NCBI GenBank assembly: GCA_031254335.1
Contig: JAIRUP010000005.1
Coordinates: 1-32,000, forward strand
Direction of reading: 5' to 3'
DNA length: 32,000 bases
Source of the DNA: Rickettsiales bacterium
GTDB taxonomy: Bacteria; Pseudomonadota; Alphaproteobacteria; Rs-D84
Below are positions 994 to 25,701 of this stretch, in pieces. Made by a program: the position numbers and the translations under genes. The stretch's first letter is position 1, and each line of letters starts with the position of its first letter. Under the pieces are notes generated by a model. It saw only the letters and a program-made list of their open reading frames with translations. It was not told the DNA's origin and searched no databases.

Positions 994-1158
994 AATAACT
1001 CAAAAAATATTAGTCCGCTCGCGTTTTCAAGGATAGAACGCCCGAGGAACAAGGGAAACCGGCGCGCGCTAGGCTTAGCCGCTCCTGCGAAGCCGGTTTC
1101 CCGCCGTTAATCGGCGTTATGGACCGAAAACGAAAAAGTGGACTTATATTTTTTGTCC
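994..1158 (+). repeat. E-repeat copy E1 (structured intergenic element, about 165 bp)
   Basis: Starts AATAACTCAAAAAATATTAG and ends GGACTTATATTTTTTGTCC. Nested stems: CGTTTTC/GAAAACG, GGGAAACCGGC/GCCGGTTTCCC and AACGCC/GGCGTT. It fills most of the 257-bp parA-parB gap. Confidence 0.8.
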
Positions 1159-1161
1159 TTA

Positions 1162-3428: not shown

Positions 3429-3986
3429 ATGAACAAGAAAGAGCTCTATTTGAAAATGGTGCGCGAAGCGTCCGCCCGGATGAATCTTGTGGCGAAATCG
3501 ACCCTGCCGGACTTGGAGAACCGTCATTGGGCCGATTCGGCGCAGCTTGCGGCATATATAGGGGCCGATTCGCTGGTTATGGATTTGGGCAGCGGCGCGG
3601 GCTTTCCGGCGGTCATCCTGGCGATTCTGGGATATAAGGTCGTCGCAATCGAAAGCATAGGAAAAAAGGCCGCCTTTCTGTCCGAGGTAAAATCCCGTTT
3701 GGAATTGGATAATCTGACCGTTTGGAACGACCGAATCGAAAACAAGATGAAAGAAATCCAAGGGAAAAACAATATTGTGTTCGTCGCCCGGGCCTTTGCA
3801 AGTTTGGATAAGATTCTGGACCTGACCGGGCGCGTCCCGGGCGCGCGCTGGGTCCTTCTGAAAGGCCGAACCGCCGAAGACGAAATAAAGGCCGCCAAAA
3901 AACGCTTTTCATTCGATTATAAAACGACGAAATCTTCGTCCGGGGATGGATTTGTCCTCGAAATAAATACCGTAAAAACTAAATAA
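3429..3986 (+). CDS. rsmG: 16S rRNA m7G527 methyltransferase RsmG (GidB)
   Basis: 185 aa. MDLGSGAGFPAVILAI is a SAM-binding motif, and RHWADS and ARAFASL are RsmG-like blocks. Confidence 0.85.
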   Translation: MNKKELYLKMVREASARMNLVAKSTLPDLENRHWADSAQLAAYIGADSLVMDLGSGAGFPAVILAILGYKVVAIESIGKKAAFLSEVKSRLELDNLTVWNDRIENKMKEIQGKNNIVFVARAFASLDKILDLTGRVPGARWVLLKGRTAEDEIKAAKKRFSFDYKTTKSSSGDGFVLEINTVKTK

Positions 3987-4104
3987 ATCTCCCAAAATTA
4001 GCCAATATATACTAGTGATAGTTGATAACATTTTATTATTCTAACAAATGTGCTAGGATTATAATCATAGGCAATTCAGTCTATGAAACAAAAGGGAAAA
4101 CACA

Positions 4105-4440
4105 ATGAATAACACGGAGCATAATTTCAACCGATTCGCGGACGCGGACGCGCTTTGGTTTTGGTTCGTCGCAAGCAAGCGCATAAAGACAGGCTTTATG
4201 GCGAGATACGCCGGCGGGGCGAACCGCCCGTGCGAAATCCTGGACATGGAGGTCTTGATGACAAGGCTGAACCTGTCGGGGAAATTGCCGAACGCGGCCT
4301 TGAATGTCCTGACGCGATACGGGTTCTTGCGGCGCGCGCCGAACAAAAACCTTCGGCACGAGGAAAAGGACGCGGCGGCTTGGGAAGGCGCGATGGAAAC
4401 CATAACGGCGGCGGCCAAAGCGAAAGGATGGTTGGAATGA
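4105..4440 (+). CDS. Hypothetical 111-aa protein on the islet; possible HTH, unverified
   Basis: The ORF has an AAGGGA SD and a perfect TATAAT at 4060-4065 upstream. I recognise no family. The C-terminal half (LSGKLPNAALNVLTRYGF) is HTH-like by eye only. Confidence 0.45.
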   Translation: MNNTEHNFNRFADADALWFWFVASKRIKTGFMARYAGGANRPCEILDMEVLMTRLNLSGKLPNAALNVLTRYGFLRRAPNKNLRHEEKDAAAWEGAMETITAAAKAKGWLE

Positions 4441-4479
4441 TAAAAGTAAGAAGGATGAAGGCAGAGGGAAGAAGGGTTG

Positions 4480-4649
4480 ATAATTATATAAGTCCCGAAA
4501 AATCCAGGCGCAATCGCGTTTTCGAGGACAGATTGTTCAATGCGAAGGAAAACCGCCGCGCGTCTAGGCTGACCGCCTGCGAAGGCGGTTTTCCAAGCAA
4601 GTGGACAATATGGACCGAAAACGAAAAATTGCGCCAAGGATTTTTTGAC
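4480..4649 (+). repeat. E-repeat copy E6 (degenerate; boundaries approximate)
   Basis: The interior aligns with E1. Stems: GCGCAAT...CGTTTTCG / CGAAAACG...ATTGCGC and GGAAAACCGCC/GGCGGTTTTCC, with an apical AGGC-TGACC-GCCT and GCGAAGG. The termini are eroded (ATAATTATATAAG ... GGATTTTTTGAC). Confidence 0.55.
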
Positions 4650-4884
4650 TGTTCGTATTTGATTGGATTCACTCCGAATACAAGGCGCAGACTCGTCCGG
4701 GTTTTTTGTAGAAAATACCGGCATTGCGCGGTTGTTGACTTGGAGAACATGATTCTAATCCAAATCGGAATCGACGGGGTCCGTCTGGTCCGAATAGACG
4801 CGGGCGGGCTGGGCAGGCTTGCCGCGCATGGCTGGGTGTTCGTCTTGGCGAAACCGCGCCGCAGCCCGAAGGGCGGAGGCGGGG

Positions 4885-4908
4885 CGCAGTTCAATATATT
4901 GAACTGCG
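4885..4908. promoter_or_regulatory. 24-bp perfect palindrome, candidate operator or recombination site
   Basis: CGCAGTTCAATA|TATTGAACTGCG has exact 12-bp arms. It lies about 90-140 bp upstream of the two panA-proximal promoters. Confidence 0.4.
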
Positions 4909-4972
4909 TCGGCTTCGCGAAGCGGTGCCTGGGAATCCGCAACCCGTTTATCCTGACGCCGCTGGACTTGTA

Positions 4973-5001
4973 TAGACATCTAGTAAAAAATATGATATAA
5001 T
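4973..5001 (+). promoter_or_regulatory. Sigma70-type promoter P1 with extended -10
   Basis: TAGACA, 17 nt, TGaTATAAT. The TG is at 4993-4994 and the TATAAT at 4996-5001. Confidence 0.55.
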
Positions 5002-5021
5002 CAGAAAAAGGAGAGGGGTTC

Positions 5022-5050
5022 TTGACTTGCAAAAGAACTATTCCTATAAT
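5022..5050 (+). promoter_or_regulatory. Near-consensus sigma70 promoter P2 for the Panacea/toxin operon
   Basis: TTGACT (5022-5027), a 17-nt spacer, then TATAAT (5045-5050). It ends 19 nt before the ATG at 5069. Confidence 0.65.
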
Positions 5051-5068
5051 CGGGTCAGGTAATAAGAA

Positions 5069-5620
5069 ATGTCGATAAGATTCAATACAAACACTCGCAA
5101 AGCCCTTGAAGCTATAATATACTTGGCCAATAAAAAAGCCGATATGACGCAGTATTACTTTATGAAAATGATATTTTTCGCGGAAAAATATCATATAAAC
5201 AAATACGGAATTCCAATCATAGGCGACAGATATATAAAAATGGACAATGGTCCTGTCCCGTCCTTTGTGCTCGACGCAATCCGCCTTGACGGAGCTAAAC
5301 TTACGCACGATATATACGAGGAAATAAACAAGTCTTTGGATTTCAGGAAGGATTCAAAAAAAATCCACACTTCGGCAAAGCGCAAGCCGGACCTGTCTTT
5401 TCTATCGTCCACAAACTTGGAATGCCTGGACAAGGCGTTCAATTTATGCAAGGCCAAATCATTTGATGAATTAAAAAATCTTACGCACGAGGAAACCGCT
5501 TGGAAAAAAGCCGTTCGCAACAGGGATATGGACTACGCGTTGTTCGTTGACGACAACCATCCTGACAAAGAAATCATCGTGGCGGACCTATCGGACAACT
5601 TCGGCACATTGGTTCTGTGA
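5069..5620 (+). CDS. Panacea-domain (DUF4065, SocA/GepA-like) putative antitoxin
   Basis: 183 aa. YFMKMIFFAEKYHINKYGIPIIGDRYIKMDNGPVPSFVLDAI fits my recollection of the DUF4065 core (K-hh-Y-a-..-G.P.. then GPV.P.V). The gene is AT-rich relative to its neighbours. Confidence 0.7.
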   Translation: MSIRFNTNTRKALEAIIYLANKKADMTQYYFMKMIFFAEKYHINKYGIPIIGDRYIKMDNGPVPSFVLDAIRLDGAKLTHDIYEEINKSLDFRKDSKKIHTSAKRKPDLSFLSSTNLECLDKAFNLCKAKSFDELKNLTHEETAWKKAVRNRDMDYALFVDDNHPDKEIIVADLSDNFGTLVL

Positions 5621-5621
5621 T

Positions 5622-6002
5622 ATGCTGTTTAAGACCGGGCGTATTTACCATTTCACGCCCTGTCGGGCTTCCAATCCTGAAAAGAACAAATATGCGATAT
5701 GTGTTTCTGGGAAAAATAACTGGTTTTTCCTTATAAATTCATGTTCTGATACGCCCCCTGTAAGGCCCTATAAGCACGAGACTGATAGGGTGGCTTATCT
5801 AAACAAATTTCAAGTTCAACCTTTAAGCAAACGCTCTTATGTTAATATTTCGATGCTGAAAACCATATACGACTCCGATTATGATTCTTGCAAAGAATAT
5901 GATAAGGTCAGCAATATGGTATGGCTGGATATAAAACAGCTTTGTATTAAGATACTTCCGGCCCAGTCCAGCGAAGTAATATCGGCTGAAAAAGTAGTCT
6001 AA
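5622..6002 (+). CDS. Candidate toxin partner (126 aa); distant MazF/PemK-like pattern, unverified
   Basis: The ATG lies 1 nt after the upstream TGA (TGAtATG). It is in frame within track ORF 5547-6002. GRIYHF..(11)..KYAICVS...WFFLINS...LSKRSYVNISMLKTI...KVSNMVWLDIKQL parallels MazF GDLIWVDF..RPAVVLS...CVPCTT...ADQVKSI...TVAPEELQLIK by eye. Confidence 0.5.
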   Translation: MLFKTGRIYHFTPCRASNPEKNKYAICVSGKNNWFFLINSCSDTPPVRPYKHETDRVAYLNKFQVQPLSKRSYVNISMLKTIYDSDYDSCKEYDKVSNMVWLDIKQLCIKILPAQSSEVISAEKVV

Positions 6003-6165
6003 TAAGCTCAAAAAATATTAGTCAAATCGCAATTTCGAGAATAAAACGCCCAATACCAAGGGAAGGCGACCCAAGTCTGGACATAAGCGTCCGCGAGGGT
6101 CGCCTTCCCGAAGCGTAGTGGGGGTTTTAGGCCGAAATTGAAATATTTGACTTATATTTTTTGTC
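6001..6165 (+). repeat. E-repeat copy E2
   Basis: AATAAGCTCAAAAAATATTAG...TTGACTTATATTTTTTGTC. Stems: TAGTCAAAT/ATTTGACTA, CAATTTCG/CGAAATTG and GGGAAGGCGACCC/GGGTCGCCTTCCC, with an apical GGAC-ATAAGC-GTCC. The left end overlaps the toxin stop codon (6000-6002). Confidence 0.85.
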
Positions 6166-6180
6166 GTATAGTATAACGCG

Positions 6181-7962
6181 ATGAAACATTACGATGTCGT
6201 TATTATAGGCGGGGGGCATGCGGGGGCCGAGGCGGCCGCCGCGGCAAGCCGGCGCGGCGCAAAGGTCGCCCTGATAACCAAATCCCCAGGCGACATCGGC
6301 GCCATGTCGTGCAATCCCTCCATCGGGGGCCTTGGCAAATCCCAGCTTATTGCCGAAATCGATTCCCTTGGCGGCATTATGGGAGCGGCTGCCGACGCAA
6401 GCGGCATTCAGTTCAGAATCCTTAACGCCTCGCACGGGGCGGCGACCCAAGCATTGCGCGCGCAAATCGACAGGCCCCGGTATGCCCGCGCCGTCCTGTC
6501 CGCGCTGGATGGAATCGACATTATTTACGGCGATGTCGCCGGGCTGGATTTGGAAGGGAGAATAGTTGAAGTAATAAATCAGCTCCCCCCATGCGGGGGA
6601 GCCGGCGAGGAACGAGCCGGCGGGGGGTCGAATGCTGAATTCAACCCCCCGCCTGTTCGCGTTCCGCTCACAGACTCCCCCGCAAGGGGGGAGTTGGTTA
6701 AGGCGAAGGCCATTGTAATAAGTGCCGGAACCTTTATGAACGGACTTACCCACATGGGGGCGGACAAAAAACCGTCGGGCCGCATAATGGACAACCTTGA
6801 ATATCAGGACAATGACAAAACCTTGTCCCCGGTTTTGCGGGCCGCGGGATTCGAACTTAAAAGACTTAAAACCGGGACCCCGGCAAGGCTGTTCCGGGAC
6901 TCGATTGACTTCCGGGGCCTGGCCGCCCAGCCGTTGGAACCTTGCGAAGGGGCGCGCTTTTCGAATACGGCAACCCAGCCCAGGGCGGCGAGCGTCGCCA
7001 CCTGTCATATCACCCATACGACCGAAAAAACCGCCGGCATTATCCGCGAAAACATCGGGAAAGCCCCAATGTTCAGCGGCGAAATCGAGGGTATCGGCCC
7101 CCGTTATTGCCCGTCCATCGAGGACAAAATCATGCGCTTCCCGGAGCACCTTTCGCACCATGTCTTCTTGGAGCCGGACGATTTGGAAGGGAGCCTTGTT
7201 TATCCAAACGGCATATCGACTTCGTTCGGGGCCGACATCCAAGACAAGTGGCTTCGGACCATTCCGGGTTTGGAGAATGTCCGCGTCGCCAGATACGGCT
7301 ATGCCGTGGAATACGACGCCATAGACGCGCGGGAACTAAAAACCACCCTGGAATCGAAAAGGATTCCGGGGCTGTTCTTCGCGGGGCAGGTGAACGGCAC
7401 TTCGGGATACGAGGAGGCCGCCGCCCAGGGCCTGGTCGCCGGGGCCAATGCCGCCGCTTTCGCTATTGGCGCGAAGCCCTTGGTCTTGGACCGCGCCAAT
7501 TCCTTTATAGGGGTTTTGATAGACGATATTACGACGCTGGGCGTGGACGAGCCCTACCGGATGTTTTCGTCCCGTTCCGAATACCGCCTGACGCTGCGCT
7601 GCGACAATGCGGTCCAAAGGCTTTGGGGAATTGCGAAGGAATTGGGGCTGCTGACGGCGAAGCAGGGCGAAACGCTTGAAAAAAACATGCCGGGAATCGT
7701 AAAAAAGACAGCTGAAATTGACAAACTGTATTTTGGTTATGTTGGCAAACAATACCAAGACATCGAGAAAATGCGTCAAAATCTGTCGCTGAAAGTGCCA
7801 GTGGCGTTCGATTACATGGATTTGCCCGGCCTGACCCTTGAACTTAGGCAAAAGCTGAACAGGGCGCGCCCGGAGAATATTCATGCTTTGTCCCGAATCC
7901 AGGGCATGACCCCGGCGGGCGTTTTGGTCGTGTTGAGGAAGGTTAAAAGATGCGGTTCATAG
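6181..7962 (+). CDS. mnmG: tRNA U34 5-carboxymethylaminomethyl modification enzyme MnmG (GidA), carrying an internal insertion
   Basis: 593 aa. [16 protein letters not shown] is the FAD-binding motif. [20 protein letters not shown] and [19 protein letters not shown] are MnmG signature blocks. Confidence 0.95.
6580..6696 (+). repeat. 117-bp GC-rich nested palindromic element inserted in frame in mnmG
   Basis: The termini CAGCTCCCCCC and GGGGGGAGTTG are inverted repeats. There are three local hairpins: GCTCCCCC-CATGC-GGGGGAGC, GGCGGGGGG-N17-CCCCCCGCC and ACTCCCCC-GCAAG-GGGGGAGT. The element starts on a codon boundary and encodes [39 protein letters not shown]. Confidence 0.8.
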
Positions 7963-8570
7963 ATTACTATTTTAGCGAGATGCCGAAGCACTTGGATATG
8001 TCCAAACGGTCCGAGCTTTATTCGGTTAATGACTTCACCTTTGCGGTCGCGGTCATCCTGTCCGCTCAGGCTACCGATAAAAAGGTGAATGAAATCGCCC
8101 CGGCCTTGTTCCGCGCCGCGCCGAACCCGGAAAAAATGCTGGAATTGGGGCTGGCGGGTCTTAAAAAACACATAAAGGTCATATCGTTCTTCAACAACAA
8201 GGCCAAAAACATAATGGCCATGTCGCGCATCTTGAAGGGCGGGGCGTTGCCCCGGACCAAAGAGGAATTGATTGCGCTGCCGGGCATTGGCGAAAAGACC
8301 GCGAATGTCATTATGAATGTCCTTTGGGGCGCGCCGCTGATTGGGGTCGATACCCATGTGTTTCGGCTAAGCCGTCGGTTCGGCTGGTCGGACGCGAACA
8401 CTCCCGAAAAGGTCGGCAGGGACTTGGCGCGGGTCGTTCCGAAGAAATATCACGGAATCGTGAATCATGTGATGGTTCTGCACGGAAGGTATATTTGCAG
8501 GGCCCTGCGTCCGAAATGCGCCGAATGCCCCGTCCGTGCGAAATGTCCGTTCAAGGGGAAAACTGTCTAA
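7950..8570 (+). CDS. nth: Endonuclease III (Nth)
   Basis: 206 aa. It has [10 protein letters not shown], the HhH-GPD block [20 protein letters not shown] and the 4Fe-4S motif C-X6-C-X2-C-X5-C ([17 protein letters not shown]). The start overlaps the mnmG end. Confidence 0.92.
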
Positions 8571-10900
8571 GCTACTTTTGACATATACTGCTTGTATATC
8601 GCGTGCATTTCGCGGACTTTCTTCGCGCGCTCTTCCTCGGACAGTTTCTCGTTGTTCGCCTCGACGGTCATTTTTCTAAGCTCGAATGTGGCGGCGTCGA
8701 AATTCTTCTGCGTTTCCACGCGGTCGCGGAATATGCTGTTGTCGTAGCTGGACGCGACCTCGTTTATCTCGATTCCAAGCTGGGCCAGCATGCCGCGCGT
8801 TCCGGCGTTCATTTCGCTTCCGAGCATTTTGGCGTTCGTCCTGTCGGACATCCTCATGCTTTCCTCGCTTATGAGGGAATTCCAGAAATTGACGAGCCTT
8901 GAAACGCTGGCGTCCTTCTTTTCCGGTATGGTTTTCCTGGTTTCAATGATTTCCTTGGCCCTCAGCTGCCGCTCTATCAGCAGTTCCGTGGATTTTTCAA
9001 GGCTGCCCACCAGGCCGTCCAGCTTTTTCAAAAGCTCGCCGTCGCCAAGGCCGTCTATCGCCCGGCCGAGCGCGGTGCGGCCGAGGTCGTCTTTCTTTGC
9101 GCGGGCGGCCTCGGAAAGCATGGCTTCCGTTTTTTGCTCGTCCGCTATTTCCTTTTCAAGCTGGGCGCGCGCGCCGTTGTCGTCGTCGTCGAATATCCCC
9201 GGCTCCGCCTGGGGTCGCGACTTCAATATCTCTATGGCGGTTCGGGACTCCAAGACCTTGTCCAGGGCTTCTTTGAGTTCGTCTATCGCGTCCTGGGTCT
9301 TTCGGAATTCCGCGCGCAGCTCCGCGTCGGGGGCGTTCCAGTCGAAGGCGGCGGATTCCAGGCCTTCTTTAAGGTGCTTGTTTTCTTCCGGCGAGCGCGG
9401 CGGAAGATTGGTGTCGCCAATCGCTATGTCCTTTTCAAGGCCCTTCTCGACATTCCCCTTGGACAGTTTTTTCCTGCGGTTGAATATCAGGTTTTTCGTA
9501 AGGACCGTCGATTCGAAGACCGCGCGCGCGGCGGCGTTCATTCCGAAATCCACGGCCTTGGCGAAGAATTGGAGCGGCGGGGCGGACTGGAACGCGGGAA
9601 GCCCCGACATGATTCCCCAATCGGACTGCTTGAAGGCGTCGCGCCGCGTCGACAGCAGCCTGCTTCCCGCGAGGACCGAAAGGCATTCCAGGACGATTTG
9701 CGGGTATTTGTCGCCCATGATGTGCTCTTTCAGGGCGAACTTTCGGATTAGTTCGCTTACAAGCTCGGTCATTTGCTGGGAATTTTTGAGCGCGCCCGCG
9801 AACACGAAGGGCTTTTCCTTCTTTATATCCTCCAAATGGGACTTCATCCATTCGGCCGCGCCGGTCGAGTATGACGACAGATTCGGGTTCTTTTTCGTGT
9901 TCACATCCCCAAGGGCTTTGATGAATCCGTCCAGCCCGTCCTTTGGCGAGAATCCGTCCCCGAGAACCATGACCTGTTCCATGATTTCGGCGGCGTCGGG
10001 GTCGCGGTATCTGTGCGAAAGATGGCGGTCGAACCGTTTGAGGAGCCTGTTGTCCAGGACTTCCCGCACCTTGGCTTTCGCCCAGTCGAATCCGACCAGG
10101 TTGTCCTTCGGCTCCATCGGGATGTCTTCGGGCTTCCTTTCCTTGGACCGGATTATGTATCCGGCCAGCTCGGGGTCGAACTTGTCTATGAGGCTTCTGT
10201 TCTTTTCGTTGATTGCCAGATACAGGTTGTTCATATAGCCCTGGTATATTTCCGCGAAATTATCCAGCTGGTGCCTTGTGTGGGTGGTGGTTTCGCCGAT
10301 ATAGTCGTCGATTGCCTTCGCGGCCGCGCCAAGGTCCTCGCCGGTCCTATTGACGAACCTGTCGACCTTGGGCATATTTTTGAGTATTTCGCTTATTTCC
10401 GCCAGGACATCGGCGGCGAGCGGCGCGCCGGAATATATCTGCCCGGCGAGGCGGCGGGCGTTGTATCCCATTCCCAGCTGGTAGTATTTGTTGTTGTAGG
10501 CCTGATGGTTGTCCTGCAAGATTCTCGCTATGTTGTTCCTTGACTTTTCTTCCGCGAGCGTTTTGGGATACTTGAATGTGGGGAACGCTTCCGCCCACTT
10601 GTCGTTCCCTATGAGGGCCTTCAAGCCGGGGTCTTGCAGGGGCGTCTCCTCGTTCATGCCGCGAAGCCCGGTCATTATGGTTTTCAGCCTTTCGTAAAGC
10701 AGCTCGAACACTTCATAGCTGGGGACGGGAATCTTTTCGGGTATGAAGCCCCACGCATACAGTTTTCCGCCGTTGCGGTTCTGCTTTTTAAGCTCTTTGT
10801 ATCTGTCCAGCCTTTCCCTGGGAACCATGTTGAAGTTTTCCCAGTTGAAATGCTGTTCGAGAAGCTGGCCTAGATTTTGTATGAACCTGTCGTCCGCCAT
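8567..10900 (-). CDS. Large orphan hypothetical protein (777 aa from MADDRF...)
   Basis: The ORF is long and uninterrupted, with even codon usage. I chose the ATG at 10900 with an AAGGGGG SD (the track start at 10939 is 13 codons upstream). I see no recognisable catalytic or nucleotide-binding motif. The C-terminal quarter or so is E/K/A/L-rich and looks like coiled coil. Confidence 0.7.
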   Translation of the reverse strand: MADDRFIQNLGQLLEQHFNWENFNMVPRERLDRYKELKKQNRNGGKLYAWGFIPEKIPVPSYEVFELLYERLKTIMTGLRGMNEETPLQDPGLKALIGNDKWAEAFPTFKYPKTLAEEKSRNNIARILQDNHQAYNNKYYQLGMGYNARRLAGQIYSGAPLAADVLAEISEILKNMPKVDRFVNRTGEDLGAAAKAIDDYIGETTTHTRHQLDNFAEIYQGYMNNLYLAINEKNRSLIDKFDPELAGYIIRSKERKPEDIPMEPKDNLVGFDWAKAKVREVLDNRLLKRFDRHLSHRYRDPDAAEIMEQVMVLGDGFSPKDGLDGFIKALGDVNTKKNPNLSSYSTGAAEWMKSHLEDIKKEKPFVFAGALKNSQQMTELVSELIRKFALKEHIMGDKYPQIVLECLSVLAGSRLLSTRRDAFKQSDWGIMSGLPAFQSAPPLQFFAKAVDFGMNAAARAVFESTVLTKNLIFNRRKKLSKGNVEKGLEKDIAIGDTNLPPRSPEENKHLKEGLESAAFDWNAPDAELRAEFRKTQDAIDELKEALDKVLESRTAIEILKSRPQAEPGIFDDDDNGARAQLEKEIADEQKTEAMLSEAARAKKDDLGRTALGRAIDGLGDGELLKKLDGLVGSLEKSTELLIERQLRAKEIIETRKTIPEKKDASVSRLVNFWNSLISEESMRMSDRTNAKMLGSEMNAGTRGMLAQLGIEINEVASSYDNSIFRDRVETQKNFDAATFELRKMTVEANNEKLSEEERAKKVREMHAIYKQYMSKVA

Positions 10901-10976
10901 AATCGCCCCCTTGGCTCTTATACCCCAATTATAACCCAAAATGGACGAAATTCAAGGAAAACCGCCGAAAATATTA

Positions 10977-17133: not shown

Positions 17134-17142
17134 TTAATAAAT

Positions 17143-17306
17143 AATAAACTCAAAAAATATAAGCAACGCCGCAAATTCGATGAATAATCGTCCGATACCA
17201 AGGGAAGGCGGCCCGAATGTGGACTTGCCGTCCCTGAGGCGTCGCCTGACCGCCGGTAGCGGACGATTAGGCGCGAATTTGAAAATCGTTGCTTATATTT
17301 TTTGTC
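17143..17306 (+). repeat. E-repeat copy E4
   Basis: AATAAACTCAAAAAATATAAG...GTTGCTTATATTTTTTGTC. Stems: TAAGCAACG/CGTTGCTTA, CAAATTCG/CGAATTTG and AATCGTCCG/CGGACGATT, with an apical GGAC-TTGCC-GTCC. It ends 1 nt from the argS stop codon. Confidence 0.85.
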
Positions 17307-17307
17307 T

Positions 17308-18981
17308 TTACATCTCGCTTGGGATTTGCATGCCGAGCAAGTCAATTGCGACGGTCAGGACGCGGAGGGAAATTGCGACCACCGCCTTCCTGTGCGGGTC
17401 GTCCGACTTCAATATCGGATAATTGTGGTAGTAATTGTTGACGGCCTGCGCCAAGTCATAGGCGTAATTCGCAAGCAGCTCGGTCTGGTATGTTTCCGCC
17501 GCCTTTGACACCGTCCTGTCGAAATCGTTCAGCATCATAATCAGGGCGCGTTCTCCCGCTCCGTCTATTTTGTCCCCGAATTCGCATTTGCTGAAATCCT
17601 CCCCGGCCTTGGCCTGGATTGCAAGAAGGCGCACCGCCGTATAAAGCACCCCCGCGCCGGTCCTTCCCTCGAAGCTGGTTAGCACGGCCGGCTCGAACAC
17701 ATAATTGTCCATCATTCCGTGCGCCAAATCATTGAATTTAAGCGCGGATACGGCGATTTTGCGCATATCCCCCGCCGAAATATCCTTTCCGCTCTCCTGG
17801 ACGCGTTTTTGGACTGCCTGGACGGTCATTTCCACTATCCCCCGGATGGACGGCGTGCCGCCGTCCCTGGTCTTGAAGGGCTTGCCGTCAGAACCGTTCA
17901 CGGTTCCATAGCCCAAATGCGTTAATTTCGCGTCTGAAAGCCCGGCGCGCCGCGCGACGGCGAACAACTGTTTGAAATGAAGGTTCTGCCTGAAATCGGT
18001 TATATAAAGCAGTTCGTCGGGCTTGTCGTCCCGGCTCCGATAGTAAATCGCGCCCAAATCCGTCGCGGCGTATGTGTCCGTCCCGTGCGATGTCTTGAAG
18101 AGAAGCGGCGGGGTGTTTTCGTCTATGCGGACTATTTCCGCGCCCTGGTCCTTTTCCAAAAGGTTTTTCACTCGAAGGATTTTTTCGACATCGGACACGA
18201 AGCCGGACGCGTATTTTTCCCCCTGCCATTTGTCGAACGGTATGACATTCATGCCTTCTATGATTTCCCGGGCGTCCTTCATGGTTATATTCCGGAACCA
18301 TTCGTAGATTTTGGAATATTCGGGATTGCCGCTTTGGAAAAGGGCGGTTATCTTTTGGGCGCGAGCGTTCCAGTCGGGGTCGGCTTTGGACAGCTCGGAC
18401 GCCTCGGGATAAAACTTGTTCAGCTCGTCCGCGGTAAGCGCGTCCGGCATTCCGTTCGGATATTTTTCCATAAGAATCGCTATGACCTTTCCCATCGGCA
18501 GGCCCCAGTCGCCGAGATGGTTGTAGGCGACCGTCTTATGTCCGGCCGCGCGGAGGATTCGGTTTAAGACATCGCCGACGATTAAGGCGCGAAGGTTTCC
18601 CATGTGCGCGCTTTTGGCGATATTGAAGCTGGCGTAATCCATGTCGATTTTTTTGGGCGCGGCGGCTTGGGTGATTTCGTCCGCGCGGCGCGCGGCGTCC
18701 AGCAAAAATTTATCGGTTAAAACGATATTCACGAATCCGGGCTTGGCGATTGACGCGGAGCTTACCTCGGGCATGAGGGTAAGTTCGATTGCGAGTTCCG
18801 CCGCCAAGTCCATGGGATTCGTCCCGAGGGTTTTCGCGGCCGTCATGGCGATATTGGTGGCGTAATCGCCGAAATCGGGATTTTTGGCGGCCTCGAACGC
18901 GATTTTTTGGACGATTTCGGCGGGGTATTTGCAAAGCAGAACTTTTTTCGCCGATTCCGATAAGACAAATGGGATGTTCAT
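17308..18981 (-). CDS. argS: Arginine--tRNA ligase
   Basis: 557 aa. It has an HIGH-type motif (AKSAHMGNLR), an anticodon-binding C-terminus ending in M, and the typical ArgRS blocks DFGDYATN and ITDFRQ..HF. Confidence 0.93.
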   Translation of the reverse strand: MNIPFVLSESAKKVLLCKYPAEIVQKIAFEAAKNPDFGDYATNIAMTAAKTLGTNPMDLAAELAIELTLMPEVSSASIAKPGFVNIVLTDKFLLDAARRADEITQAAAPKKIDMDYASFNIAKSAHMGNLRALIVGDVLNRILRAAGHKTVAYNHLGDWGLPMGKVIAILMEKYPNGMPDALTADELNKFYPEASELSKADPDWNARAQKITALFQSGNPEYSKIYEWFRNITMKDAREIIEGMNVIPFDKWQGEKYASGFVSDVEKILRVKNLLEKDQGAEIVRIDENTPPLLFKTSHGTDTYAATDLGAIYYRSRDDKPDELLYITDFRQNLHFKQLFAVARRAGLSDAKLTHLGYGTVNGSDGKPFKTRDGGTPSIRGIVEMTVQAVQKRVQESGKDISAGDMRKIAVSALKFNDLAHGMMDNYVFEPAVLTSFEGRTGAGVLYTAVRLLAIQAKAGEDFSKCEFGDKIDGAGERALIMMLNDFDRTVSKAAETYQTELLANYAYDLAQAVNNYYHNYPILKSDDPHRKAVVAISLRVLTVAIDLLGMQIPSEM

Positions 18982-19081: not shown

Positions 19082-19158
<77 letters not shown>

Positions 19159-22169: not shown

Positions 22170-22334
22170 AATAAACTCAAAAAATATTAGGCCAATCGCA
22201 ATTTCGAGGATAGATTTTCGAGAAACAAGAAAACCCGGCCGCCGTCTGGACATCGGCGTCCGCGGCGCGTCGGGTTTTCGCAGTTAATCGGAAATATAGA
22301 CCGAAATTGAAATATTGGCCTTATATTTTTTGTC
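22170..22334 (+). repeat. E-repeat copy E5
   Basis: AATAAACTCAAAAAATATTAG...TTGGCCTTATATTTTTTGTC. Stems: TAGGCCAAT/ATTGGCCTA, CAATTTCG/CGAAATTG and GAAAACCCG/CGGGTTTTC, with an apical GGAC-ATCGGC-GTCC. The right end overlaps the stop codon at 22333-22335. Confidence 0.85.
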
Positions 22335-22914
22335 ATTTGCAATTCGACATATAGTCGAAATAGTCGAAGCCGTCGATGTGGCGGTTGCGCAAATCGGCTT
22401 CCATCTCCATCTCGCGCAGGACTATTTGCAGTTCCGGCGAAAGTTCTATTTGCATCGCCATATCGTCCACCGCGTCGCCGGACAGGGGCGCGTGCGGGAC
22501 GGTTTTCGCCGCCGCCGTCAAGGCCTTTTCCAGTTTGTCCTTGAAATCGAACAGTATGGATTGATAGGTTTCGACATGGTCGCTTTCATGCCCCAGGACC
22601 GCGTCCCATTCGCAGGAACCCTTCCTGAACCGCTTGTCGATTCTGATAAGGAAATCGTATTTGATTTCGGCGGCGACGGCGGTCAGGACGACGCATTCCG
22701 CGTTCTGCCCGGTTTCCAGGGTCAGTTTCTTTTGGAATGTCGCAATGACTTCCCCGTATCTGTTGGGTATGGCCTCCGAATTCTTTATTTCCGTTTTGGA
22801 ATCGGGGATTGATACCGAAACCGAAACGGGTCCCTTCGAGCAGAAAGTGCGCTTGGCCTCCGCCGGAATAACATTCATTATCGCAAACAAAATCATAATT
22901 ATTCTAACAATCAT
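22333..22914 (-). CDS. Secreted hypothetical protein with HExxH motif (possibly DUF922-like Zn protease)
   Basis: 193 aa. The N-terminal signal-like segment is MIVRIIMILFAIMNVIPAEA. CEWDAVLGHESDHV contains HESDH. The layout (Cys..W..HExxH) recalls DUF922/COG5661, from memory only. Confidence 0.5.
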   Translation of the reverse strand: MIVRIIMILFAIMNVIPAEAKRTFCSKGPVSVSVSIPDSKTEIKNSEAIPNRYGEVIATFQKKLTLETGQNAECVVLTAVAAEIKYDFLIRIDKRFRKGSCEWDAVLGHESDHVETYQSILFDFKDKLEKALTAAAKTVPHAPLSGDAVDDMAMQIELSPELQIVLREMEMEADLRNRHIDGFDYFDYMSNCK

Positions 22915-22967: not shown

Positions 22968-23020
22968 AATAAATAGGCTCGAAAATTTTTAACGAAATAT
23001 TGAGGTTAAAATTTTTGTCA
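22967..23020 (+). repeat. Possible minimal or decayed E-repeat (termini only)
   Basis: AATAAATAGGCTCGAAAATTTTTAAC-GAAATATTGAG-GTTAAAATTTTTGTCA has E-like ends around a short AT-rich hairpin. The terminal TCA is the virB4 stop codon, the same geometry as E5. Confidence 0.3.
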
Positions 23021-25423
23021 GCTTGATTGTTTAAGGTATTCCCAAACAAAATTGCTTCCCTGCGATTTGTATATTTCTTCGGCGAGCAGGACGCTTTTGC
23101 GGCCGCTCTCGAAAAGCCTGAGATATGGCCCAAGGCCGCCGAGTTCCGTATTGAGCACCACCGATTCGTTTGTAATCGGCCTGCGCAGCAGAACCGCCCT
23201 TTTAAGGTTGGGATAGAGCTTCCCTTGTATGAACGCCATCTCCATGGGGCTTAGCCGCCAATTCTCGTAATCCGAGGCGTCCGCCGCCGGATTCCTGAAA
23301 AAGAGAATCGTCTGCGCCTGGCCGCGCACGACATCGCCTATGCCCAGCTTGTCCAGAATATTCGCGCGCTGGAAGGCCGCCATATAGGCCTGCCTGTTTT
23401 TCCGCCCCTCGGAAAGGCCCGTTATGAAATTCTTGCGGAACTGTTCGTTTTCAAGCATGGGCGCGGTTTCGTCTATCATAATCAAACTTGGATTGCCGCC
23501 CGCAAGCGTTATATTGTTGATTCTTTGGAGCAGATAGCTGAGGACGCCGGGGGACAGGGCCGGGTCGTCTATGATATTCGTGAAATCGAATGTGGTGAGG
23601 CGCGAATGCAGGTCTATGCTGTCCTTCCCCTCGTTGAATATGGTTCCGTATTGGTTGTCGTCTATCCATCTTTTCATATTCGCGCGGACGGTTCCCGCGG
23701 ACGAAAAGCACGACGGGACGATGTTTTTAAGCTTCCTGTCGCGGGCGGCGAGATAATCGAAATTCACCGCGACCGCGTTCGATATTTCCTCCAAGCTGGC
23801 GGCGTCCGTCTGACCCGATAAAATGGACATCCACCGTTTAAGGAAATCCCTGTCGGCGTCCGTCCCGTCCATCATAAGGGGGTTCATTTTGCTTTCTATT
23901 CCGATGTCGATTTTGTCGGCGTTCTGCGACCTGTTCTCGAATGTAAGGTATTTTCCGCCGACCGAAAGCGTGAATATTTCCGCCCCGCGGTTCCTGTCGA
24001 AGAAGAACGACTTCAATTTCGGATGCCGCATGGACTGCGATATTAAAAACGAGAAAAGCGTGGTTTTACCCTGGCCCGTGGGTCCGATTACTATGCTGTG
24101 CGCGGCGGCCGCCTGGCCCTGGGACACATGGAATTGGAATTTATAGGGCGTTCCCTCTGCCGTAGGGAATACCGCGATGGGGCCCTGTCCCCAGTCGGAA
24201 TTGTCGAAGCCGCCCGGGACCAGTGCGCATGGAACCGACGCCGCGGCCGCGCTTGAAAGCAATTTATAGCTGCGCGGGAAATCGTCGAAGCCGGGCGTCA
24301 TGGAAAAGAACGCGGGTTTGAGGCCGAAGTTTTCGACCGCGCTTGTAATCCCGAAATTGGCGCATATTTTTTGGAATTCGGCTATGGCGGCCAAGAGTTC
24401 GGACGAACTGTCGGCGCGAAGCATGAAAAGGGGATAATAATCGAATAGATTCTGGGAGCCGGCCGCGTCCTCGTCCATCATGCCGAGCGTTTCCTCGATT
24501 TGTTCGGACACCGTGTTGAAGCTTCGTTCGTTGTCGCTTGAAATCTGCTTTTTATTGAAATGGCTTTCGGCCGCGCGCCGCGACATCGGAATCATTCCGT
24601 TCATGACGACGATTTCCGATTGAAGGGATGAAAGCGATGTGAAGAACTCCTCGTCCATCCAGTCGGGCGCGGTCCTGAAACTGAGGCAGGCCGCGTATTT
24701 CACCCTGTCGCCTGATGAATATTCCAAATGCCCGCCCTGGAACGACACATCGTTCGTCGCGGCCAAATCCGAAAAATTCCCCTGGCTTAGATTTATCCTG
24801 GATTCGGACAGCGGCGACAGGATTTTGGAATAGAACGAGGCGGCGTTGTCCGCCGAATCGTGCTTCAATACGGACACTCCGTATGGGGCGAACACGGACT
24901 CGAACGAATTGGACGCCGCGGACAAATTTTCCATATTTCCGGCAGAAATCACGAGATAATAGCTGTTTTTATAGAGTTTAAGGCCCTGGTTGTTCCATTG
25001 GTCGTGTATGTCCTGCAATATCCTCTCGTCGAACTCGAAATCCGTCCTGGCATAATCCCGCGAGCGCGCCATGAAAAACCTGAGGACCGTGTCCCCGCCC
25101 TGCATCTGCTGCAAAAAGCGGGTGCGTATGTCAAGGAATTGCCTTTGCTTCTCGGGCTCCGTCATATTCGTTTGGATTCCCGATATGGCATACACCCTGA
25201 ATATTCTGCCGTTTTCGAGCAAAACCGTCGTTTTGTCGTCGAGCGGATACTTGAACGGAAGGTATTCCGCATACGACTTGTATCCGAACTTCGGGAACGC
25301 TATTTTTCCGAGAAGCCCCAGATAAATCAGAAACACTATGAAGATTCCGAACGCGGCGGCGGCCATGAGCGCGGCGGTCATGAACGAGCTGTCCTTGGTG
25401 AAGATTATTTCCAACGCTTCCAT
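23018..25423 (-). CDS. virB4: Type IV secretion system ATPase VirB4
   Basis: 801 aa with an N-terminal TM segment. The Walker A is GPTGQGKTT and the Walker B region is PSLIMIDETAPML. It is translationally coupled to virB3 (TGATG overlap). Confidence 0.9.
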   Translation of the reverse strand: MEALEIIFTKDSSFMTAALMAAAAFGIFIVFLIYLGLLGKIAFPKFGYKSYAEYLPFKYPLDDKTTVLLENGRIFRVYAISGIQTNMTEPEKQRQFLDIRTRFLQQMQGGDTVLRFFMARSRDYARTDFEFDERILQDIHDQWNNQGLKLYKNSYYLVISAGNMENLSAASNSFESVFAPYGVSVLKHDSADNAASFYSKILSPLSESRINLSQGNFSDLAATNDVSFQGGHLEYSSGDRVKYAACLSFRTAPDWMDEEFFTSLSSLQSEIVVMNGMIPMSRRAAESHFNKKQISSDNERSFNTVSEQIEETLGMMDEDAAGSQNLFDYYPLFMLRADSSSELLAAIAEFQKICANFGITSAVENFGLKPAFFSMTPGFDDFPRSYKLLSSAAAASVPCALVPGGFDNSDWGQGPIAVFPTAEGTPYKFQFHVSQGQAAAAHSIVIGPTGQGKTTLFSFLISQSMRHPKLKSFFFDRNRGAEIFTLSVGGKYLTFENRSQNADKIDIGIESKMNPLMMDGTDADRDFLKRWMSILSGQTDAASLEEISNAVAVNFDYLAARDRKLKNIVPSCFSSAGTVRANMKRWIDDNQYGTIFNEGKDSIDLHSRLTTFDFTNIIDDPALSPGVLSYLLQRINNITLAGGNPSLIMIDETAPMLENEQFRKNFITGLSEGRKNRQAYMAAFQRANILDKLGIGDVVRGQAQTILFFRNPAADASDYENWRLSPMEMAFIQGKLYPNLKRAVLLRRPITNESVVLNTELGGLGPYLRLFESGRKSVLLAEEIYKSQGSNFVWEYLKQSS

Positions 25424-25701
25424 CAGCTTATAAGGTTCCGGGGGATTTTCATTCTGATTATTTTAAGGTTCGCGGATATTATTCGGCCCATTTGCGGCTC
25501 TTTGCTTGAAATCCGGGCGATTGTATAGTGGGACGCCATGAACGGGACGAGAAAATAGAGCGGGTTTGCGTTTCCTTGGAATACGACCAAAAAAACTATG
25601 AATAATATGAAAAAAACCGCGAAATTCAACATGGCGAGTCCATAAGGCGCGCCAAGGATTCTAAGCGGATTCGTTATTGCTTTTTGGATTGCTATTTTCA
25701 T
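25423..25701 (-). CDS. virB3: Type IV secretion system protein VirB3
   Basis: 92 aa. NPLRILGAPYGLAMLNF is followed by a hydrophobic hairpin, as in the VirB3 family. It lies directly upstream of virB4. Confidence 0.75.
   Translation of the reverse strand: MKIAIQKAITNPLRILGAPYGLAMLNFAVFFILFIVFLVVFQGNANPLYFLVPFMASHYTIARISSKEPQMGRIISANLKIIRMKIPRNLIS

Follow-up and report, generated by a model that had tools for sequence, protein, structure and literature searches.

The mnmG (gidA) gene of an uncultured Rickettsiales bacterium carries, in frame, a GC-rich nested palindrome of 123 bp that is probably a non-autonomous palindromic repeat, inserted once and tolerated. The gene lies in a 32,000-nucleotide stretch of a metagenome-assembled genome (MAG; assembly GCA_031254335.1, contig JAIRUP010000005.1, positions 1 to 32,000), which we call the window and whose coordinates we use throughout. 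The element (6577-6699, a multiple of three) has the form of a dimer of repetitive extragenic palindromes (REPs), akin to either REPINs (REP doublets forming hairpins) or Rickettsia palindromic elements (RPEs). A preliminary description of the sequence had proposed an RPE-type repeat tolerated in frame as a surface loop, and this proposal was right in kind. The proposal agrees with four findings. Other aligned homologues lack the block, whose boundaries are clean; a structural model shows it as a loop; its end hairpins and nested layout match those of an abundant repeat family of Alphaproteobacteria; and other genes harbour in-frame members of the same family. The behaviour of intragenic palindromes is itself already known, since in-frame insertions are described in Di Nocera, De Gregorio & Rocco 2013 (PMC3733652) and in a review (PMC10969869). 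The novelty lies in the host gene and the lineage, together with a parallel case in a second genome.

On re-reading, positions 6580-6696 held the sequence quoted in the preliminary description, which had delimited the element to these 117 bp. This segment stands as the core, and the full palindrome reaches 3 nt further on each side. An inverted-repeat search placed the outer arms at 6577-6609 and 6667-6699, each 33 nt long and 82% complementary to the other, so that the inverted termini noted earlier were recovered, as were the three hairpins, i.e. two terminal ones with 8-bp stems and a central one. The host gene and the parts of the element are as follows.

6181-7962, plus strand: host gene mnmG (gidA), 593 aa, in which the insert is residues 134-172 (TIGR00136, matches in the Protein Data Bank (PDB), AlphaFold2 model).
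6577-6699: whole element, in which a structured spacer separates two inverted REP-like hairpins (arms, whole-length fold, 120-123 nt gap in the mnmG of two relatives).
6582-6602: left terminal REP-like hairpin, GCTCCCCC-CATGC-GGGGGAGC, with TCA before it (perfect 8-bp stem, 5-nt loop).
6601-6621: small spacer stem-loop adjoining the left hairpin, GCCGGC-GAGGAACGA-GCCGGC (direct reading of the sequence and direct repeat).
6613-6659: central stem-loop, core GGCGGGGGGT ... ACCCCCCGCC (21-nt arms 6613-6633 and 6639-6659, 5-nt gap, 86% complementary).
6653-6673: putative degenerate right spacer stem-loop, CTGT ... ACAG, a weaker counterpart of 6601-6621 (sequence reading, part-paired in the minimum free energy (MFE) structure).
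6674-6694: right terminal REP-like hairpin, ACTCCCCC-GCAAG-GGGGGAGT, followed by TGG, which is CCA on the complement (perfect 8-bp stem, 5-nt loop).

The candidate stem-loop at 6653-6673 is the weakest of these parts. The spacer measures 71 nt when counted from stem to stem (6603-6673) and 73 nt when counted from one CTCCCCC/GGGGGAG core to the other. Folded as RNA, the 117 nt form one long hairpin of -87.4 kcal/mol, compared with -50.5 +/- 4.0 kcal/mol for dinucleotide shuffles (z = -9.3; energy equalled by 0 of 200 shuffles), and as a DNA single strand they reach -44.5 kcal/mol (z = -7.0; equalled by no shuffle). The palindromy of the element is thus real and far beyond chance. The insert is also more GC-rich (70%) than the remainder of mnmG (57%). 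Its core begins on a codon boundary (6580-6181 = 399 nt, or 133 codons) and runs for 39 stop-free codons inside the 593-aa open reading frame (ORF), which agrees with the in-frame placement described previously, and the encoded peptide is rich in Gly, Pro, Ala, and Arg. A stop-free frame is unremarkable when taken alone, given that the element can be read without a stop in three or four of its six frames (in one of these, the only stop is terminal). A QLPPCGG...GEL-type peptide is encoded by both orientations.

The host gene had been named as mnmG, and both a profile search (TIGR00136, 612.8 bits for a cut-off of 524.85) and solved MnmG chains in the PDB (E = 5e-143) bear this out; the product is identical to MDR0319393.1 ("MAG: Rickettsiales bacterium"). 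In a HMMER alignment, residues 111-172 of the query face residues 134-165 of the E. coli MnmG chain, which corresponds to the ~30 extra residues estimated earlier, and the excess amounts to 39-41 residues when MnmG proteins of the same clade are used as a reference. The closest homologue, from another Rickettsiales MAG (P0002; 65% identity), is 543 aa long and lacks the insert, and most other homologues among those listed measure 543-552 aa. A multiple alignment of MnmG orthologues, one of the checks suggested in the preliminary description, showed the 39 insert columns to be occupied by the window protein (P0001) alone among 68 aligned homologues. At the DNA level, alignment with the mnmG genes of P0002 and of a second relative (P0012, see below) opened a single clean gap, 120-123 nt long, on both sides of which the sequences could be aligned. 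Excising the 123 bp yields RIVEVI|KAKAIV, the same length as KIVNGR|RAGAVV of P0002.

An AlphaFold2 model built from the 68-sequence alignment (mean predicted local distance difference test score (pLDDT) 81, predicted template modelling score (pTM) 0.86) provided the structural check that had also been suggested. Residues 135-168 have a pLDDT below 50 and no secondary structure, and the flanking strands, 128-133 and 171-180, belong to blocks with a pLDDT of ~95. The model superposes on solved MnmG structures (9HIP, 2ZXH) with a template modelling (TM) score of 0.80. Because of this drop in confidence between two confident strands and the match to solved MnmG, the insert is modelled as a floppy loop of low confidence, placed at the tip of a confidently predicted beta-hairpin in the flavin adenine dinucleotide (FAD)-binding domain. 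This predicted position would be at the protein surface and is compatible with the MnmG fold, as expected of an RPE. Separately, MnmG proteins of this clade (543-552 aa) are ~63 residues shorter than E. coli MnmG in the C-terminal helical domain, with query residues 505-510 standing opposite E. coli chain residues 492-561.

Relatives of the element were sought through its end hairpins, by looking for pairs of CTCCCCC-N5-GGGGGAG hairpins separated by 58-88 nt in a collection that represents each bacterial species by a single genome, and by scanning metagenomes for the extended end hairpin RCTCCCCCCWTGYGGGGGAGY, which gave at least 120 matches. The genome matches listed include more than 120 elements of 96-126 bp with both end hairpins, overwhelmingly from Hyphomicrobiales (Mesorhizobium, Brucella, Agrobacterium, Bradyrhizobium, Methyloceanibacter, and others), plus a few from other phyla. 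One subfamily (e.g., loci L008, L050, L054, L102, L106, and L122) displays the module order of the window element, namely end hairpin, small spacer hairpin, G6T...AC6 stem, small hairpin, and end hairpin, and its members have in common the GGGGGGT/ACCCCCC inner stem of the central hairpin. A small spacer hairpin equivalent to 6601-6621 is found in L244, L205, L032, L122, and L099, while the tag GAGATGTC is carried by L008, L050, and L102; in a large Mesorhizobium-type subfamily, the stems begin with AT. Nine sequences including the window element folded into one consensus long hairpin of 36 pairs, 10 of which are kept through changes on both sides. These compensated pairs include "loop" bases of the end hairpins, so the two ends of the dimer covary. 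Among the metagenome matches listed, the nearest arms reach 84-88% identity over ~50 nt (L244, L234, L132, and L205) and are found on GC-rich contigs, either singly or in tandem arrays. Locus L220 (positions 1-370, Ga0255048_10046682) is a head-to-tail array with a period of ~57 nt whose unit, CCGGCTCGGCTGCGCCTCGCCGACTCCCCCGCAAGGGGGGAGTGACTG, is near one window arm, and thus the half-unit also exists as tandem arrays in a GC-rich organism. Lengths are divisible by three in 59 of 123 sampled elements, a figure we do not use since flanks are excluded and one 108-nt subfamily dominates.

These 123 sampled elements were further checked for open frames of at least 80 codons on each side, and nine of them were scanned against Pfam. 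At least six elements lie in frame, with Pfam domains of one protein flanking or spanning each:

L016 3411-7376, minus strand: DnaE2-type polymerase, between the finger and HHH domains.
L054 4335-8000, plus strand: DnaE2-type polymerase, in the inter-domain region (finger/HHH) that is also occupied in L016.
L099 1-2691, plus strand: DNA polymerase I (PolA), between the 5'-3' and 3'-5' exonuclease domains.
L085 482-3736, plus strand: UvrA, between the interaction and DNA-binding domains.
L020 2619-6731, minus strand: hydantoinase/oxoprolinase, between the N-terminal and A domains.
L050 2456-5875, minus strand: Type ISP restriction enzyme, within the C-terminal domain.

Further probable in-frame hosts are CobN (L101), a DNA ligase (L042), and a FAD-oxidase/Fe-S protein (L118), and the hosts of in-frame copies are mostly Hyphomicrobiales and other Alphaproteobacteria. 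These copies repeat an observation by Di Nocera et al. 2013 (PMC3733652), who described REPs and REP dimers inside genes as encoding 20-82 residues, with many hosts involved in replication and repair (among them DnaE2, UvrA, PolA, and ligase), and intragenic REPs as concentrated in replication, repair, and RNA-related genes.

A further Rickettsiales MAG, produced by the same sequencing project, has a second palindromic insert in its MnmG (P0012, MDR1206939.1), a protein 58% identical to the window protein by BLASTP and 63% identical over aligned columns. This insert of 41-42 residues is also in frame, ~15 residues upstream of the window site, and likewise unique among the 68 aligned homologues. 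The underlying DNA (L002 10334-10455, ~120 bp) is a different nested palindrome of like design, with end hairpins CCCCTTCGC-TGG-CGAAGGGG, small spacer hairpins, and a central stem, and a 162-nt segment across it has an MFE of -102.9 kcal/mol. No other full element of the mnmG-insert type was found in the 32 kb of the window or in the 22 kb of the P0012 locus. The two inserts are most simply read as a sign that this surface region tolerates additions, although targeting may have played a part.

Among known repeats, the window element most resembles in layout the dimers of CGTC REPs, which have stems of 8-9 bp, loops of 4-5 nt, a CCA tail, and dimer spacers of 20-100 bp (PMC3733652). CGTC REPs are found mainly in Alphaproteobacteria, in all orders including obligate intracellular lineages such as Rickettsia and Wolbachia; in Agrobacterium tumefaciens, CGTC-3 dimers have two small stem-loops at the spacer ends (PMC3733652). 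In the window element, each end hairpin similarly combines an 8-bp stem with a 5-nt loop, and the inverted units enclose a 71-nt spacer with end stem-loops and a central stem, the whole folding as a long hairpin. A CCA-like tail may be represented by the TGG after the right unit (CCA on the complement); the left unit has TCA before it. The portions of the text of PMC3733652 available to us do not name mnmG as a host. RPE-4 and RPE-6 of Rickettsia conorii are themselves CGTC REPs (PMC3733652), and REP dimers occur in genes, so that "RPE-like" and "REP dimer" designate one kind of thing. RPEs frequently insert in frame (PMC10969869, citing Ogata et al. 2000, 2002; also cited in PMC3184786), and the window element is similar to RPE-1 to RPE-10 in being a palindrome of the ~105-150 bp class that sits in frame in a Rickettsiales housekeeping gene, with a frame-compatible length and a fold-compatible predicted position. 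This likeness is drawn from architecture and in-frame behaviour. Unlike RPEs, however, the element is found outside the genus Rickettsia, in an uncultured Rickettsiales MAG of ~53% GC, with a GC content of 70%, and whereas RPEs are defined by many copies per genome, one copy was seen in the 32-kb window.

REPINs (Bertels & Rainey 2011, PMC3116915) also consist of two inverted REPs and a spacer forming a long hairpin, with covarying ends, but they are extragenic, form large near-identical populations, and are associated with a single-copy REP-associated tyrosine transposase (RAYT), whereas the window element is intragenic and single-copy in the window. Classical miniature inverted-repeat transposable elements share the inverted termini but generate a target-site duplication, which the window element lacks. 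Wolbachia palindromic elements, reportedly described within coding sequences by Ogata, Suhre, and Claverie in 2005, would be another instance of palindromic repeats inside genes of a Rickettsiales lineage, a likeness drawn here by description only. Other types of insert were considered and rejected. Neither an intein nor a self-splicing intron would fit in so short a segment, the open frame of the segment makes translational bypass unneeded, and an Rfam scan of the whole window at the gathering score returned one tRNA (19082-19155) only, with no structured-RNA family matching the element. A literature search for the literal hairpin sequence returned nothing relevant.

Several observations weigh against an inserted repeat of this class. 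The tag is degenerate: CGTC REPs have an unpaired CGTC (or TGTC/CCTC) at one end of each unit, whereas the window element has CGGC on the left and CTGT on the right complement, each one mismatch away from CGTC/TGTC, and its first two stem pairs are G-C/C-G and A-T/C-G instead of A-T/T-A. Beyond the end hairpins, the likeness to family members is modest, at ~70-88% over the arms. Of the further copies that the preliminary description had proposed to look for, none was found by blastn-short in the window (word size 7; self and arm-to-arm matches only); the matches listed for the genome and metagenome scans (at least 120 each), none of them from the source genome, gave no copy elsewhere in it. 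The 39-aa peptide had no match at E <= 0.001 among 1.84 billion representatives. A Pfam scan of 20 window ORFs revealed no transposase domain, and so no RAYT (Y1) among them. No target-site duplication was observed either, the sole nearby direct repeat (GTAATAA, 144 nt apart) lying off the junctions. Finally, C-run/G-run hairpins are common enough to leave some room for convergence. A search of a six-frame peptide concatenate against 5.8 billion proteins is uninformative, as it failed to return even the source protein, probably owing to low-complexity masking.

The single copy in the window, the empty peptide searches, the lack of a transposase nearby and of a target-site duplication, and the abundance of C-run/G-run hairpins (at least 120 matches in each scan) could all be accommodated by a lineage-specific loop of local origin, arisen through inverted duplication or slippage at the mnmG hairpin tip and convergent in its likeness to REP dimers. 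We consider this unlikely given that the full modular order of the element is found in many genomes, arm identities rise to 84-88%, the GC content exceeds that of the gene by 13 points, a different element of like design interrupts the MnmG of another MAG, and several further palindromic repeat families are present in these genomes. Far less probable still is an artefact of assembly or binning in which a repeat from a GC-rich co-resident bacterium was joined into a Rickettsiales gene. The source is indeed a MAG, the insert exceeds its host gene in GC content, and the closest relatives of the element, among the matches listed, are in Hyphomicrobiales and unidentified GC-rich contigs, but a chimera would not yield a precise in-frame insertion with homologue length restored on both sides, and the presence of the identical gene and element in an independent Logan assembly (run SRR14710927) also argues against it. 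Co-option of the element, compatible with insertion, would imply maintenance by selection, either because the mRNA hairpin regulates mnmG through translation pausing or RNase III processing, or because the loop gained a role such as partner binding. The transcript hairpin is very stable, two independent palindromic inserts occur in one MnmG region, and the bias of intragenic REPs towards replication, repair, and RNA genes (PMC3733652) is repeated in the Pfam-scanned copies, yet the arms have decayed to ~80% complementarity, the peptide is predicted to be disordered, and it is conserved in no other protein, making such a role very unlikely. A bolder variant, which we regard as quite unlikely, is that REP dimers preferentially land, or are preferentially retained, in the MnmG beta-meander of these intracellular bacteria, that the inserts are used (as an mRNA hairpin tuning expression, or as a flexible loop on the MnmE-MnmG complex), and that the GC-rich element came from free-living Alphaproteobacteria; were it true, two inserts ~15 residues apart would reflect selection or targeting.

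Taken together, the evidence favours insertion of a palindromic repeat followed by tolerance, and the element probably works like, and derives from, the CGTC-like REP-dimer class. We do not file it in any of the four families of that class (CGTC-1 to CGTC-4) as a proven member, since both its tag and the A-T pairs expected at the first stem positions are degenerate. In the scenario we propose, a single insertion into mnmG would have taken place in the lineage of this Rickettsiales genome after its split from the nearest sampled relative. The element may have reached mnmG as a folded single strand, transposed by machinery acting in trans. Its hairpin ends and the missing target-site duplication would fit single-strand transposition of the HUH/Y1 type; however, no transposase domain was found in the window ORFs scanned, and no dedicated one is associated with the CGTC class (PMC3733652). 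The element would then have persisted because its length is a multiple of three, its landing frame holds no stop, and its location is the tip of a surface beta-hairpin in the FAD-binding domain. There, the 39-41 extra residues would form a disordered loop that leaves the MnmG fold intact, and the enzyme is presumably still active. Because its arms are only ~80% complementary, this copy appears partly decayed, and it is likely now an immobile fossil.

This case offers a precisely bounded and model-mapped example, outside the genus Rickettsia, of small palindromes lengthening essential proteins without breaking them, and ties the RPE phenomenon to a broader GC-rich REP-dimer family of Alphaproteobacteria. 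It opens no new mechanism. For annotation, such inserts account for odd length differences and Gly/Pro-rich low-complexity segments in otherwise conserved enzymes from MAGs.

Two other repeat families were observed in the window and in the nearest relative (L004). One is a separate AT-rich family of ~160 bp with inverted termini CTCAAAAAATATTAG ... CTTATATTTTTTGTC and a mean column identity of 73%, for which no Rfam match was found; one copy ends 18 nt ahead of the mnmG start codon. The other is a third palindromic family with outer arms AAAAATCCAG...ATTGCG / ...GGATTTTT and an inner hairpin ...GGAAA(A/G)CCG(C/G)..., all copies of which lie between genes:

Window 995-1161, 6003-6169, 17140-17316, and 22172-22338 (intergenic), and L004 308-472: AT-rich family.
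Window 4498-4644 (inner arms 4529-4557 and 4584-4612), and L004 11054-11205, 12681-12834, and 13522-13675: third palindromic family.

Besides the mnmG element, a scan of the window for C-run/G-run hairpins returned only 2075-2091 and a terminator-like 2169-2189. The former, CCCCTCC-AAG-GGAGGGG, had been presented as a relative of the mnmG element located upstream of parA. The hairpin exists and is REP-like in form, with a GC-rich tail (2075-2113), but its arm similarity to the element falls within the range of shuffled sequences, and we reject the relationship. It stands beside a perfect 19-bp hairpin, TTCATGTGAAATGCCCCCT / AGGGGGCATTTCACATGAA (2159-2199), which is terminator-like and lies just 3' of mreB.

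Some of the genes around mnmG also stand out. An AT-rich stretch between gidB (3429-3986) and mnmG (40% GC over 5001-6000) harbours an antitoxin-like gene of the SocA_Panacea family (5069-5620), which may be an inserted cassette, and long overlapping ORFs without a Pfam match occupy both strands at 4065-5308. Downstream of nth, a 790-aa ORF (8567-10939, minus strand) likewise has no Pfam match, and a 791-aa Pfam-less ORF alike in size and position adjoins nth in the nearest relative (L004 6692-9067). Finally, a VirB4/CagE-family type IV secretion ATPase (23018-25701, minus strand), with a small ORF upstream, has tsaE, mreC, PBP2, and rodA as neighbours, and its presence among housekeeping genes fits a Rickettsiales-like organism.

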